A DNA stretch of 20,000 bases, from the IMG/VR virus record IMGVR_UViG_3300033141_000684; one strand, written 5' to 3'. The translations under genes and the position numbers were made by a program. The stretch is from an uncultured virus (IMG/VR IMGVR_UViG_3300033141_000684). Taxonomy: Duplodnaviria > Heunggongvirae > Uroviricota > Caudoviricetes. The notes beneath the pieces were generated by a model. It was not told where the DNA came from, ran no database searches, and saw only the letters and a program-made list of their open reading frames with translations. Below, in pieces: positions 3,856 to 14,291 of the stretch; position 1 is the first letter of the stretch; each line of letters starts with the position of its first letter.

Positions 3856-4916
3856 TCTGTTACCTCGTGGGTCTCGATTAGTGTGCCGTTGAACTCTTGC
3901 TTCAGCGTGTCGACGACCTCGTCGCCGATCATGTTCTTCGCGTCTGCCTTGTATATCTCGACCGAGCTGTATCCGGTCGGGCCGTTCTTAAATACCTTGC
4001 CGGTGATCTTGTTCGTGTAGACGACGTCGTCGTCGATCGCGTCGATCGGCTCTGCCCACGTCTCAAGCATCTGGGGCAAGTAGGCGTGCGAGGCGCAGCC
4101 GTTCATCTGCTGATTCTTGTCGAGCTGCAGGTTGTACTTCTCGCAGAGCCAGGTCGCCTCACCGTCGGGCGCTGCAGTCGCATGCACGCATGACCTGCAG
4201 GTCGGGACGGGTGCGGCTTTAGAATGGCAGGTCGCGCTATGGTCGCAGAAGTTACACTGCCACCATGCCGGGTCGTCAGAGATGCGCGCCGGCGGTTCGA
4301 CTGACTCGATGATCGTGCGCGCTCGCTCCATGATCTGCACGAACTCTTTCTTGTTGAATTTGACGCGCTCAATGTAGAGGTCGTCGTCATTCTTGTTGAC
4401 GGCCATATAGAGCGCCCGGTCGATTGAGCTGAGGCCCATATAAACCTGCATCTGCGCATAGTGCTCGGGCTTCGACTGCTCGACGCCATCCTTCACGAGT
4501 GACTTGAAGCTCTTATCGTTGTGCGTCTTCATCTCGATAATGTGCGGGCTCTTCGGGGCTTCGGGCACGCCTTCGGTCGCGATGCCGTCACCGCTGCCGC
4601 CGAAGTGACCGCCGTGCGCTGACCATTGCCATTGTTCGCTGGTGCGCGGGTCGATCTCAACGACCTCGACGCCGATGCGCTTCAACTCTTCAACGAAGAC
4701 CGCCTCTTCTCGCTGGCCTCGATTGAACAGGCGCAGCACGCGACCGGGAAAGTTCGCGACCGTCGACCATCTGAACGAATACCAGATTGAGCGCGTGCAC
4801 GGCCGGCCGATGATCGACGCGCCGAGGTGCTCTCTGAATCCGTTGCCGGCCCGGTCTTCCCAGCTCTTGAAGATCAGGTTGCGCGTGTTGTGCGTTGGCT
4901 CGGGCATTACCGCCAT
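3852..4916 (-). CDS. Cas4-like PD-(D/E)xK phage exonuclease with Fe-S cluster cysteines
   Basis: LGASIIGRPC.R, GSGDG...IIEMKT, HYAQMQVYM, CNFCDHSATC, plus an extra CRSC...C...C cluster; Sak4/SSB/helicase neighbourhood. Confidence 0.9.
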   Translation of the reverse strand: MAVMPEPTHNTRNLIFKSWEDRAGNGFREHLGASIIGRPCTRSIWYSFRWSTVANFPGRVLRLFNRGQREEAVFVEELKRIGVEVVEIDPRTSEQWQWSAHGGHFGGSGDGIATEGVPEAPKSPHIIEMKTHNDKSFKSLVKDGVEQSKPEHYAQMQVYMGLSSIDRALYMAVNKNDDDLYIERVKFNKKEFVQIMERARTIIESVEPPARISDDPAWWQCNFCDHSATCHSKAAPVPTCRSCVHATAAPDGEATWLCEKYNLQLDKNQQMNGCASHAYLPQMLETWAEPIDAIDDDVVYTNKITGKVFKNGPTGYSSVEIYKADAKNMIGDEVVDTLKQEFNGTLIETHEVTE

Positions 4917-4947: not shown

Positions 4948-5553
4948 TCATGCCGCTCTTCTGCCGAGTATGTTGTGCTCCGGGTCGAAGACGTCGATCA
5001 ATAGGTATTCTAACTGCGTGAGCTGCCTGTCAGCGAGGCTCGCGCCGTCGACATACAAGACCCCATCGAAGCATTTGTCTTTAATGTGTTGCCCTGATCT
5101 CTGTAATGCGCTCACTCGGCTTTGACCAATATAGACGACAGTCTCTTCGAGCATGAGCAGGTATATGCCCCTGCCGATGACGGGCGAGCGCGAGAATCTT
5201 ATCTCTGAGATCGGCCCGCCTATATCGTAAGGAAAAAACTGATCGCCGTATAACTCGCAGTCTGCTGCGATTGAGACCATTCTGATCTCGGCCTTGATCT
5301 GGTCGGCAACGATCTTTCTCTCGCAATCTTCAGAGCAAGCGAAACGGGCGCTCGACGACGGCGGGCCGTCGTCGTCACTCTCATACTCTCGCAAGTCGCA
5401 GGGCGACCACGTCACGAGCGAAAGCTCGGGCGGATATGGCGCATATAATCTTGACGGGAAAGTTCGCCAACATCCACAACAATGGAGGTCATCGCGAGGG
5501 CCGAACTTTTTCGCGGCGCGACTACCTTGAAGAACTGCTGGAAGTTTTGCCAT
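4948..5553 (-). CDS. GIY-YIG endonuclease with N-terminal Cys-rich (Zn-finger-like) domain
   Basis: RGIYLLMLEETVVYIGQS...QRSGQH...LEYLLIDVFDPEHN has the GIY, YIG, R, H, E and N residues; N-terminal CCGC...FACSEDC. ATG at 5553 overlaps the upstream stop (TGATG). Confidence 0.8.
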   Translation of the reverse strand: MAKLPAVLQGSRAAKKFGPRDDLHCCGCWRTFPSRLYAPYPPELSLVTWSPCDLREYESDDDGPPSSSARFACSEDCERKIVADQIKAEIRMVSIAADCELYGDQFFPYDIGGPISEIRFSRSPVIGRGIYLLMLEETVVYIGQSRVSALQRSGQHIKDKCFDGVLYVDGASLADRQLTQLEYLLIDVFDPEHNILGRRAA

Positions 5554-6530
5554 CACCAAGCCCTCCAAAGATCTCGCAGCAACCGCTTCTGCACGTAACG
5601 GTTCGCTCTGTTGTGAATGTGGCCGACGCTCATATACAAGTGAGCCTCAGCTTTCGGAATCTGGGCCGCCGGCAAAACGATCAGACCCTTCGCTTCTGCG
5701 CGCTCGGTCTCGATCACCTTGCGGGCGTCGCGGGCGTCGCGGTACTTGTTAGCCTTGCGGGTGAGCGCGTCACCGATGACATACATGAGCGAGCGCCTGA
5801 GTGGTGAGTAACCTTGCTCGATGCCTCGCTGCCCGGTCATGCGTCGCTGGCGTTCGCCGTTGATCACCGCCAAACCGAACCGTTTCCAGAGCTTCGACTC
5901 GTTCGAGTAATTGTCGAGCGGGCCTGACTCGCCGATGATCATAGCAAGGCCGAGCGGGCCGAAGCCGTTTATCGGCTCGGCAAACTCTTCCCAGACGGGC
6001 AGCTCTTTGACGACCTTCTTGAGTATGCGCTCGCGTCGCTTTTTCTCAGCCGTGAGCGGCTCACGCGCTTCGAGCATGGGGCCGATGTTCGCCGCAGCGA
6101 TAACACCGAGCGGGTGCTCTTCGTTCTTGACGACGGCAGTGTAGAGCGCCTGGCCTTCTTTCGTACCGCCAGCAAGTCGCCGGCAGATGGACTTCGCCTG
6201 TAGCGTGATTCGCTGCTCTGCGCCCATCATGTCAGAGCGTGCGCGATGGTGCTCCCGCAGCTCTGCGCATAAGATTGCCCGGCCTAATCTGGTATGGTCG
6301 TCTCCGACGGCGCTATAGGGGGCCGGGCTTGAACCTGCAGCGGAACTAGAAGTTTGGTCGGTTTCGACAATGTAGAATTGACCGCTGCGTGACTGGACGC
6401 CTCCCGGCTGGGCGAGCTTTGATTGGCCCTTCTTAGGCACTACTCGGTCGGCCGGGCCGGGGGCGTTAATAGGGTGAGCGGCAACGCTGAGTTTGGCCGC
6501 CTTTGCGGCAATGGTTTTCTGACCGCTCAT
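5553..6530 (-). CDS. TasA-like IS110/Nop-domain RNA-binding protein lacking a nuclease domain
   Basis: Coiled coil (LREHHRARSDMMGAEQRITLQ) then IS116/IS110/IS902-type C-terminal motifs (PINGFGPLGLAMIIGESG..NYSNESKLWKRFGL, GYSPLRRSLMY, HNRANRYVQKRLLRDLWRAW). No DEDD/RuvC domain and no catalytic SG loop after GL. The first ~85 codons coincide with the guide array. Confidence 0.85.
   Translation of the reverse strand: MSGQKTIAAKAAKLSVAAHPINAPGPADRVVPKKGQSKLAQPGGVQSRSGQFYIVETDQTSSSAAGSSPAPYSAVGDDHTRLGRAILCAELREHHRARSDMMGAEQRITLQAKSICRRLAGGTKEGQALYTAVVKNEEHPLGVIAAANIGPMLEAREPLTAEKKRRERILKKVVKELPVWEEFAEPINGFGPLGLAMIIGESGPLDNYSNESKLWKRFGLAVINGERQRRMTGQRGIEQGYSPLRRSLMYVIGDALTRKANKYRDARDARKVIETERAEAKGLIVLPAAQIPKAEAHLYMSVGHIHNRANRYVQKRLLRDLWRAW
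6277..6529 (-). ncRNA. TIGR-like stem-loop guide RNA array, 4 units
   Basis: Minus-strand units share stem-(CCA-like)-N9-(TG-like)-hairpin-CCA-N9/10-(TG-like)-stem. U1 6475-6529: TGAGCGG TCA GAAAACCAT TG CCGC AAAG GCGG CCA AACTCAGCGT TG CCGCTCA. U2 6398-6465: CGCCCCCGGCCCGG CCG ACCGAGTAG TG CCT AAGA AGG G CCA ATCAAAGCT CG CCCAGCCGGGAGGCG. U3 6337-6388: GCAGCGG TCA ATTCTACAT TG TCG AAAC CGA CCA AACTTCTAG TT CCGCTGC. U4 6277-6328: GCCCGGC CCC CTATAGCGC CG TCG GAGA CGA CCA TACCAGATT AG GCCGGGC. Confidence 0.85.
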
Positions 6531-9722: not shown

Positions 9723-10019
9723 TTAGTGTGGCGGTTCGCCGGTGGTGTCTGGGCCGGGCTGGCCCTTTGACGCTTTCTTGATTCGTTCCTGCAAGGCTTG
9801 GTCTGTTATCCGCTCGGCATCATAGACCATTGCGTAAAGGTTGCGCAGCACAATCTTCGCCGACCTGATGCCGAACCTGCCAATGTACCGTTTGAAGGTC
9901 TGAGCGACGACAATCGCGTACACCGTGCGTCCTAGCTCCCGGTCATTGCCGATGGCCCGCTCGAAGTTGTTCAGTACCTCGTTGACGTGCCGAACGAATT
10001 GCTGGTTGTCGTCGCTCAT
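9723..10019 (-). CDS. hypothetical phage protein (98 aa)
   Basis: Closely spaced ORF in the leftward operon. Confidence 0.65.
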   Translation of the reverse strand: MSDDNQQFVRHVNEVLNNFERAIGNDRELGRTVYAIVVAQTFKRYIGRFGIRSAKIVLRNLYAMVYDAERITDQALQERIKKASKGQPGPDTTGEPPH

Positions 10020-10022
10020 AAA

Positions 10023-10178
10023 CTAGGCAGCCGCCGGCAGTTCGTCGTCTGGGTCGATCGGCAGCACGTCGATCACGATCTCTTCGATCACAAGCGACTC
10101 TAGCTCTTCGACGGTCAGCTCGACGATGCCGCACTGCTGCGGCGTCTGTTGAACATGCTGTACCGTGTAACCTTTCAT
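10023..10178 (-). CDS. small acidic protein (51 aa), first gene of the leftward operon
   Basis: Not in the ORF track: MKGYTVQHVQQTPQQCGIVELTVEELESLVIEEIVIDVLPIDPDDELPAAA; ends 3 nt before the next ATG and lies just downstream of the leftward promoter. Confidence 0.6.
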   Translation of the reverse strand: MKGYTVQHVQQTPQQCGIVELTVEELESLVIEEIVIDVLPIDPDDELPAAA

Positions 10179-10201
10179 CTCGTCGTAGTTTACCTGATCA
10201 G

Positions 10202-10229
10202 CCTATACCGTGTCAGCATGAGATTGCAA
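10202..10229 (-). promoter_or_regulatory. putative leftward sigma70 promoter
   Basis: TTGCAA-16 nt-TATAGG (or 18 nt-TAGGCT) on the minus strand. Confidence 0.5.
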
Positions 10230-10276
10230 GGTTTTTGTGTGGGTTGTGCGATTTTCGTCACAATCCCACTACGCCC

Positions 10277-10305
10277 TTGACCTCGGCATGCCGTCGCAGT
10301 ATATT
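10277..10305 (+). promoter_or_regulatory. putative rightward sigma70 promoter
   Basis: TTGACC-17 nt-TATATT upstream of the Cro-like gene. Confidence 0.7.
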
Positions 10306-10353
10306 CGGCCGTTCCGGTCAATACTACCGGCAAACCATTCGAAAAGGCAAATA

Positions 10354-10599
10354 ATGAGCAAGACAACACAAGCGGCAGAAGTCACGGCCGCGACTCTGAC
10401 ACTGGGCGACTACATCGAGGGGCGAGACCTGACACAAGACGCGGTCGCGAAAAGGTTAGGCGTGACTCAAGCGGCCGTCAGCCGATGGCTGTCTACACCG
10501 AGCCGGCGCATTCGTGTCGAGCTGTACAAAGACGGCAACATCGACATCGTCGAGAACAAGGTGATCGCAACATCGCGAAAAAGACGCGCACGCAAGTAG
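10354..10599 (+). CDS. Cro/XRE-like HTH transcriptional regulator
   Basis: LGDYIEGRDLTQDAVAKRLGVTQAAVSRWL; ATG 10354 with AAGG RBS is preferred over 10237. Confidence 0.88.
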   Translation: MSKTTQAAEVTAATLTLGDYIEGRDLTQDAVAKRLGVTQAAVSRWLSTPSRRIRVELYKDGNIDIVENKVIATSRKRRARK

Positions 10600-12600: not shown

Positions 12601-12800
12601 TTGCAAAGTTATGTCAGAGTTCGGTCGGAGTTGTCGGAAAGATTTGCTAAGTCATTGATTTTAAAGGTGTGCAAAGTTCAAAGTAGTTGTCGGAAAGAAT
12701 TTTTAAGTGCTTGATTTTAAAGAACAAAGTTTTCAGAGTTTTTCTATATATAAATATATAAATATATTTGGGTGTCAGTACACCCCAAAATATATATTTA
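12601..12800. other. putative replication origin (direct repeats, IHF sites, AT-rich palindrome)
   Basis: 38-bp direct repeat at 12629-12666 and 12685-12722 (33/38 identical); repeated CARAGTT heptamers; two WATCAANNNNTTR matches on the minus strand (12648-12660, 12704-12716); TA-rich imperfect inverted repeat ~12759-12800; directly after the primase-helicase. Confidence 0.7.
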
Positions 12801-14010: not shown

Positions 14011-14291
14011 GCATGACATTCACCGACAAAGAGATCGACGCACTGCGAAAGGTCTATAGCCAATGGGTCGACGAGGTCTTCATGAAAAGCCAATGGGTCG
14101 ACGAGGTCTTCATGAAAGACTCCACCGGCTCGGCCGAAACGCACTCACTGCGCACGATCGCCTCGACGGCGATCACCAAGATCGCAGCAAGTCGTGAGCC
14201 GCTTGTCGAGCCAGACCCGAAAGAAGAGATCACGGTCACGATCACCTTCATAGGCGAAAAGCCGGAGGTGAAGACATGGTCAAGATCATAA
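14007..14291 (+). CDS. hypothetical protein with internal 10-aa duplication
   Basis: ATGA overlap with the upstream ORF; SQWVDEVFMK occurs twice. Confidence 0.65.
   Translation: MSMTFTDKEIDALRKVYSQWVDEVFMKSQWVDEVFMKDSTGSAETHSLRTIASTAITKIAASREPLVEPDPKEEITVTITFIGEKPEVKTWSRS
14058..14117 (+). repeat. perfect 30-bp tandem duplication
   Basis: AGCCAATGGGTCGACGAGGTCTTCATGAAA at 14058-14087 and 14088-14117. Confidence 0.97.

Follow-up and report, generated by a model that had tools for sequence, protein, structure and literature searches.

In a 20,000-nucleotide (nt) stretch of DNA from an uncultured Caudoviricetes virus (IMG/VR record IMGVR_UViG_3300033141_000684; hereafter, the window), we analyzed a hairpin on the minus strand (6277..6328), which we call unit 4. 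We read it, with a probability of about 80%, as the fourth tigRNA unit of a stem-loop TIGR array that lies in the 5' end of a nuclease-free TasA gene of an uncultivated phage, with a tRNA-Pro gene as the best single candidate for its target, at about 40%. This kind of system has already been published (2025-2026), and the locus is otherwise an ordinary member of it.

According to passages of Faure et al. 2025 (PMC12045711), TIGR effectors are Nop-domain proteins, namely TasA, which has no nuclease, TasR, and TasH; the array units each carry two spacers, A and B, each flanked by a box C ('CCA') and a box D ('UG'); and a second type of array has variable palindromic stems instead of edge repeats. 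Passages of Xu et al. 2026 (bioRxiv 10.64898/2026.09.09.750476) add that stem-loop arrays may sit in the 5' end of the tas frame without breaking the frame, and that TasA is a transcription repressor in reporter assays.

A stem-loop guide array in the 5' part of a Tas-type gene

On the minus strand, positions 6328-6277 (52 nt) read GCCCGGCC CC CTATAGCGC C GTCG GAGA CGAC CA TACCAGATT A GGCCGGGC, which comprises (i) a perfect 8-bp outer stem with its arms at 6328-6321 and 6284-6277, (ii) two 12-nt internal-loop strands, and (iii) a 4-bp inner hairpin at 6308-6297. Spacer A is CTATAGCGC (6310..6318) and spacer B is TACCAGATT (6286..6294), both on the minus strand, and the boxes read CCC, CG, CCA, and AG. 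An earlier note on this DNA had described a unit with two spacers here, and this description of a two-spacer guide unit holds, the sequence being as claimed and the stem exact. With up to 3 mismatches allowed, the arm pattern has 3 matches in the window as against 0.18 expected, and is exact only at unit 4. The window gave no Rfam match at an expect value (E) of 1 or better, and ARAGORN found no tRNA gene in it; only the joined spacers of unit 4 are tRNA-like.

The minus strand from 6560 to 6180 (381 nt) folds into four tandem units (z-score -3.03; 1/100 shuffles equally stable), which have one common architecture and all lie on the gene-sense strand. Our parser for such units follows a grammar of a stem ending in C, 2 letters, 9 nt, 1 letter plus G, a loop element ending in C, 2 letters, 9 nt, 1 letter plus G, and the stem, and it calls units 1, 3, and 4. 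With it, we scored 101 distinct loci encoding relatives of the TasA protein, where the grammar reads C-CA, 9 nt, UG, loop, C-CA, 9 nt, UG. Among units with at least three of the four boxes in canonical form, 244 lie in sense and 3 in antisense upstream of the gene, as compared with 69 and 4 downstream of it; the strand was decided by the box motifs, the counts of G-U versus A-C pairs having failed to settle it. In total, the parser yielded 347 units in 86 loci, with 341 distinct spacer pairs. Stem covariation, assessed on 80 units, was 100% paired by construction (the units being stem-selected), and its informative part is the variety of pair types. The closest relative (L005, TasA 57% identical) has an upstream region that is not alignable unit for unit with that of the window. 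Two 8-12-nt spacers, box C/D flanks, and a palindromic stem, which together characterize stem-loop TIGR arrays, are all present in the array and its family, and in part in unit 4 taken alone.

The tasA open reading frame (ORF; 5553..6530, minus strand) encodes 325 amino acids (aa) from an ATG at 6530, with a conserved core at residues ~86-325 (5553-6275). Its 5' third contains all four guide units, and the array itself codes for the N-terminal ~85 residues. A protein search returned 188 homologs at E 0.001 or better, most of which span ~74% of the query and some of which carry PF02371; phrog_4285, a 'transposase' family in PHROGs, matches residues 163-325 (E 3.4e-19), and a Pfam scan of the product was negative at an E cutoff of 0.01. 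Across 26 aligned sequences, conservation sets in near residue 88, and the N-terminal regions are unalignable, which leaves a core of ~240 aa. By phmmer, this core matches PDB 9MTY (E 1.3e-10), the TasR model of Faure et al. 2025 (PMC12045711). An AlphaFold2 model has a mean predicted local distance difference test score (pLDDT) of 84; the score exceeds 90 at 244 residues and falls below 50 at residues 1-71 (predicted disordered). Its ten best PDB matches in Foldseek, at E 1e-6 to 4e-4 and probability 1.0, are without exception TIGR-TasR or TasH; the IS621 recombinase comes next (E 7e-3), with Prp31/Nop proteins further down. Sequence and model both point to an effector with a Tas-type Nop domain. 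It is assigned to TasA rather than to TasR or TasH, with no nuclease domain, because no Pfam domain was found, the core measures only ~240 aa, and residues 1-71 are predicted to be disordered.

The canonical start codon closest to the core lies 165 nt upstream of it, so that units 3 and 4 would fall within the translated frame unless a noncanonical start is used. In 66 related loci with a match that extends to the beginning of the core, the tasA frame stays open over a median of 217 nt upstream, versus 96 and 33 nt for the other two frames, and exceeds both of them in 51 loci. Further, 95 of their 160 upstream units fall within the open tasA stretch, in agreement with the intragenic tigRNAs described in parts of Xu et al. 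2026 (bioRxiv 10.64898/2026.09.09.750476).

The joined spacers of unit 4 and tRNA-Pro genes

Passages of Faure et al. 2025 (PMC12045711) describe each spacer as pairing with a different strand of an 18-bp site, with gaps of 1-2 bp tolerated, and TasR cleavage as following a 'C-5 rule' and leaving 8-nt 3' overhangs. Because the published TasR cuts leave 3' overhangs, we read the target strand as spacer A followed by the reverse complement of spacer B: of the two symmetric arrangements, only this one would yield 3' overhangs, which, with the C-5 rule, would measure 8 nt. In the 86 related loci (L005-L118), the spacer letters A9 and B9 are complementary in 147/320 pairs (25% expected), versus 80/320 for A1 and B1, which show no relation; this agrees with an arrangement in which the spacers adjoin each other at their 3' ends. 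The signal fits targets with a central base pair that both spacers share or abut. Unit 4, with C at A9 and T at B9, lacks it. Among the related loci, near matches were in no excess in the adopted geometry over three wrong geometries, once the matches from the search with unit 4 itself were set aside. The target geometry of the earlier note thus agrees with the overhangs in the published passages and with the A9/B9 complementarity, although its claim that unit 4 'independently supports' this geometry is circular.

In this arrangement, spacer A and the reverse complement of spacer B (AATCTGGTA), the latter of which resembles a tRNA D-loop, make up the 18-mer CTATAGCGCAATCTGGTA. Without its first C, the resulting 17-mer (TATAGCGCAATCTGGTA) has 56 exact loci in a metagenome collection, of which 20 are tRNA-Pro genes by ARAGORN (19 UGG and 1 GGG), with the match at tRNA letters 6-22, and a 21st is a cut copy. 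These 21 tRNA-Pro genes sit in tight tRNA clusters, and the other 35 loci are unrelated contexts. For the tRNA cluster at locus L122, isolated phages offer no close relative, the best match being ~82% identical. The composite is therefore tRNA-like, as the earlier note had stated, with an exact 17-mer in 21 of 56 loci and a fit of 17/18.

A search of 401 sampled Pseudomonadota genomes with up to 2 mismatches gave 48 places in 43 genomes; a reversed-pattern control over the same genomes also gave scattered single matches. Half of the 48 places (24) belong to four recurrent forms. ARAGORN identified all 8 of the recurrent places checked as tRNA-Pro (7 GGG and 1 UGG), and none of the 7 nonrecurrent places checked as a tRNA. 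The best genome form, CTATAGCGCAGTCTGGTA, has a single mismatch, at spacer position B8, and is found in chromosomal tRNA-Pro(GGG) genes of 2/401 Pseudomonadota genomes, as well as of 7/121 genomes of one order, for which the reversed-pattern control gave 0. The 3-kb loci around this form have a G+C content of 51-63%, as compared with 58% for the window. A search for tRNA genes with an exact match or one mismatch, which the earlier note had put forward as the test of its target, did find tRNA-Pro genes at one mismatch and so leaves that proposal standing.

Altogether, tRNA-Pro genes (letters 5-22, 17/18) are the only natural sequences found that fit the site in a meaningful place. Judged from these sequence matches, the unit 4 guide may be aimed at letters 5-22 of the tRNA-Pro gene of the phage's host or of a rival phage, a tentative proposal to which we give clearly less than an even chance. 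By analogy with the published TIGR-Tas systems, the array would be transcribed with or within tasA, its units would be cut out and released, and a TasA dimer would bind one unit. Spacer A would then pair with one strand of the DNA, and spacer B with the opposite strand over the adjoining 9 bp, by which the complex would recognize the 18-bp duplex CTATAGCGC followed by AATCTGGTA, unwind it, and sharply bend it. The bound, bent DNA would block transcription or other traffic, with no cutting. On a tRNA-Pro gene, the site would comprise letters 5-22, in the transcribed part near the 5' end.

The reading that most nearly rivals this proposal, and that we hold to be not far from an even chance, is that unit 4 is a working TasA guide whose likeness to tRNA-Pro is coincidental, its real 18-bp site being in uncollected DNA of a host, a plasmid, or a rival phage. 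We estimated the chance rate with a strict D-arm pattern (T8, R9, G10, Y11, A14, R15, G18 G19, and A21), which arose in 94/200,000 re-paired and in 199/200,000 letter-shuffled family composites (0.05-0.1% per guide). The chance of a strict D-arm fit within the four guides of the window is accordingly only about 0.2-0.4%, which argues against coincidence. So do the reach of the fit into nonconserved letters that are typical of tRNA-Pro (the GCGC D-stem) and the placement of both mismatches, A1 and B8, outside the TasR seed, as it may be gathered from published passages. However, once the pattern is met, a match to some real tRNA within one mismatch would, by a rough estimate, not be rare, given the large diversity of tRNAs, and according to passages of Xu et al. 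2026 (bioRxiv 10.64898/2026.09.09.750476), short spacers lead to many spurious target matches.

Several further results weigh against a tRNA-Pro target and favor coincidence. Across the family, the D-arm pattern occurred in 0 of the 341 other pairs in the adopted geometry, and 0, 0, and 1 times in three wrong geometries, so that the ~345 family guides contain 1 D-arm fit as against 0.15-0.3 expected by chance, which is within chance. A T-loop pattern was not clearly enriched either, with 8 cases in the adopted geometry versus 4-7 in the wrong geometries and 2.7 +/- 1.8 in shuffles. Nothing tRNA-like is seen in the remaining units of the window array, and the unit 1 composite, searched in 151 genomes, gave 47 scattered near matches, with no form seen more than 2 times and no conserved site. 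For the 18-mer itself, no 18/18 tRNA was found in the metagenome, viral-contig, or genome searches, and the viral contigs had no exact match with a 0-2-nt gap. In the metagenome tRNAs, the C of the guide is replaced by G (in one case by A) just before the match, which gives the mismatch at A1 and the fit of 17/18. The full 18-mer does occur in five of the 35 unrelated loci, about the number expected by chance, and none of these is a tRNA. The genome forms that carry the C have a G at D-loop position 15. The tRNA loci with the exact 17-mer have a G+C content of 45-52%, which makes them unlikely hosts for a phage of 58% G+C. The nearest virus record (G001, a 21.6-kb fragment) has no site within 3 mismatches. 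The case for the target consists of one match at 17/18, seen outside the context of a host. Of the tRNA-Pro-like gene that the earlier note had named as the target, what stands is that tRNA-Pro genes within one mismatch exist; an 18/18 tRNA, D-arm likeness in other pairs, and a conserved site for unit 1 are missing.

tRNA genes neighbor guide units in two related loci. In a 129-kb viral contig (L032:4220-4360), a tRNA-Arg(UCU) gene (4284-4360) lies between TIGR array units, and the unit immediately upstream of it (4220-4269) has an exact 11-mer in common with the anticodon arm of this tRNA, namely CAGCCTTCTAA, which consists of box C letters and spacer A; its spacer B fits the next tRNA-Arg letters at only 7/9, and only with a 2-nt overlap. 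In a 4.6-kb contig of a metagenome-assembled genome (L112:2345-3485), a tRNA-Pro(GGG) gene lies ~480 nt past the end of tasA, with its 3' end towards tasA and two guide units in between. The latter arrangement resembles a prophage end at a tRNA-Pro gene, and the guides of this locus match that tRNA at 10-11/18 at best.

Loading of unit 4, RNA targeting, and recombination

Whether TasA would accept unit 4 bears on another reading, which we consider improbable, namely that unit 4 is decayed, is not loaded, or is a mere hairpin tolerated in the N-terminal coding extension of TasA, with no target. By our parser, only 1/4 of its boxes is canonical, and 2/4 (the first box C, CCC, and the last box D, AG) lie outside the published finder sets (CCA, CGA, CTA, and CAA for box C; TG and CG for box D), as given in parts of Xu et al. 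2026 (bioRxiv 10.64898/2026.09.09.750476). In the family set of 347 units, which was chosen for at least 3 canonical boxes, CCC as the first box C occurs in 10 units, AG as the last box D in 5, and the combination of variant boxes in unit 4 in none. Because its first box C and last box D are off the published sets and rare in the family, loading of unit 4 by TasA is not assured. This, and a search that listed no RNA runs containing the window stretch, count against unit 4 as a TasA guide. In addition, the hairpin is energetically not exceptional when folded alone (z-score -1.72; 14/200 shuffles equally stable), and the stretch is in frame within an ORF whose closest canonical start precedes the core by the 165 nt mentioned above. 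A nonfunctional hairpin would, however, leave unexplained the perfect 8-bp stem and the loop strands of exactly 12 + 12 nt. Moreover, the inner hairpin is identical to that of a canonical unit in a related locus (L009), and each variant box also occurs on its own in family units that are otherwise canonical. Nor does the protein account for the RNA structure, since residues 1-71 are predicted to be disordered. Contigs from 4 DNA runs showed no differences where compared, with unit 4 covered by one run only. DNA runs that contain the phage are labelled as sediment and hydrothermal-vent metagenomes.

The earlier note had also allowed for the tRNA itself as the target, and a guide that acts on tRNA-Pro RNA in box C/D style, rather than on the gene, would find some footing in spacer B, which is complementary along its whole length to letters 14-22 (D-loop) of the matching tRNAs, and in the relation of Tas proteins to the box C/D protein Nop5 (noted in passages of Faure et al. 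2025, PMC12045711). Spacer A, however, is identical to tRNA letters 5-13 and of the same sense, so that it cannot pair with them. Further, TasR is described in the same source, in the parts consulted here, as inactive on RNA substrates, and no methylase partner was seen among the window ORFs scanned or in the locus. We therefore drop this part of the earlier proposal as very unlikely. An H/ACA-like reading was likewise set aside, in view of the TIGR-Tas description in parts of Faure et al. 2025 (PMC12045711).

Least credible of all is an IS110-type bridge RNA and recombinase with a tRNA gene as its insertion site, despite the resemblance of the C-terminal part of the protein to the IS110 'transposase' domain and of the internal-loop guides to bridge RNA loops, since (i) there is no DEDD/RuvC domain (no Pfam match, a core of ~240 aa, and no structured domain before residue 78), (ii) the fold matches TasR/TasH at E 1e-6 versus IS621 at 7e-3, (iii) the four units are equivalent, rather than one target loop and one donor loop, and (iv) the gene lies inside a phage replication module.

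Surroundings, significance, and comparison with known systems

The other three units of the array all lie on the minus strand. Unit 1 (6475..6529) has the stem TGAGCGGT/GCCGCTCA, spacer A GAAAACCAT, the inner hairpin GCCGC-AAAG-GCGGC, and spacer B AACTCAGCG(T), and shows 4/4 box motifs by the parser. Unit 2 (approximately 6400..6466), which is seen in the fold and not called by the parser, has an irregular outer stem, the inner hairpin GCCT-AAGAA-GGGC, and spacers A (about ACCGAGTAG, 6448-6440) and B (ATCAAAGCT, 6423-6415). Unit 3 (6337..6388) has the stem GCAGCGG/CCGCTGC, spacer A ATTCTACAT, the inner hairpin GTCG-AAAC-CGAC, spacer B AACTTCTAG, and 2/4 canonical boxes. Units 1 and 3 have flanks in common, in that both open with GCGGTCA, their A spacers end in CAT, and their B spacers begin with AACT. 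In unit 3, both spacers contain TTCTA, so that its predicted site would be an operator-like inverted repeat, TTCTA-4 nt-TAGAA. A search for self-targets in the window gave best matches of 13-14/18 for the four composites, the same as in shuffled windows, and the longest spacer words that recur elsewhere in the window are 8-10 nt.

The neighbors of tasA are phage replication and recombination genes, namely those for a helicase, a Cas4-type exonuclease, a DUF669 single-strand-binding-like protein, a Sak4-like ATPase, a primase-polymerase, RusA, and an A1-like DNA transfer protein. At 9723-10599, an ORF for a helix-turn-helix repressor-like protein (10237-10599, plus strand) lies opposite a divergent gene block that runs leftward, with a gap of ~220 nt between them, as in a phage lysis-lysogeny switch; no integrase turned up among the scanned window ORFs. 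Elsewhere in the window, two 38-nt direct repeats (12629-12722; 87% alike, 56 nt apart) occupy an A+T-rich gap after the primase-polymerase gene and may mark a regulatory or origin region, and an exact 30-bp tandem duplication (14058-14117) lies within a run of small ORFs.

Passages of both Faure et al. 2025 (PMC12045711) and Xu et al. 2026 (bioRxiv 10.64898/2026.09.09.750476) describe the natural targets of TIGR spacers as undetermined. In full-text literature searches and in the main texts searched (Faure et al., Xu et al., and Guan et al. 2026), we found no report of a tRNA target of TIGR systems; the word 'tRNA' occurs 2 times in Faure et al., with the one passage viewed being in the reference list, and 0 times in the other two. 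If a tRNA-Pro gene is indeed the target of unit 4, it would be the first natural target to be named in any TIGR system, and TasA binding would shut off transcription of the tRNA-Pro gene of a host or rival phage. Alternatively, TasA might bend DNA beside a tRNA attachment site and so serve as an RNA-guided integration helper, an idea of integration that is raised in part of the Discussion of Faure et al. 2025 (PMC12045711). The joining of two guide halves into a tRNA-Pro segment provides a concrete site that could be tested by an ordinary binding or repression assay.

Among known systems, archaeal box C/D small ribonucleoproteins resemble the window system in their Nop-domain scaffold and two-guide RNA. 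They guide the methylation of tRNA and rRNA, tRNAs being among their targets, and their RNAs carry RUGAUGA/CUGA boxes that form kink-turns. Their guides pair with RNA and recruit fibrillarin, whereas in the window one spacer has the wrong sense for a tRNA and no methylase was seen. The bridge RNA recombinases of IS110/IS621 are similar in having a related RNA-binding domain and guides on both internal-loop strands (as described in passages of Faure et al. 2025, PMC12045711), but the window system has neither a DEDD domain nor a donor loop, and no element ends were seen, although no search aimed at them was made. Closer is the dual-repeat TIGR-TasR of a Thermoproteota archaeon (PDB 9MTY), which shares the Nop fold, the coiled-coil dimer architecture, and two spacers for opposite strands of an 18-bp site. 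It differs in its RuvC nuclease, its conserved edge and loop repeats, and its 36-nt RNAs; the window system has no nuclease, and stems replace the edge repeats.

The closest known systems are the stem-loop TIGR-TasA systems of a Peromyscus leucopus gut contig and of Bifidobacterium longum, the latter with intragenic tigRNAs, as described in parts of Faure et al. 2025 (PMC12045711) and Xu et al. 2026 (bioRxiv 10.64898/2026.09.09.750476). They have in common with the window (i) a solo Nop-domain protein, (ii) tandem hairpins with variable palindromic stems, (iii) two ~9-nt spacers between CCA-type and UG-type boxes, (iv) gene-sense units, some of which lie inside the 5' end of the tas frame, and (v) a phage setting. 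The window differs from them in having four units only and edge-side boxes that are off-consensus (TCA, CCC, TT, and AG), and its unit 4 has an inner 4-bp hairpin where 294/347 family units have a 6-nt loop element. It is, further, known from sequence alone, and it differs in that a specific candidate for a natural target can be named.

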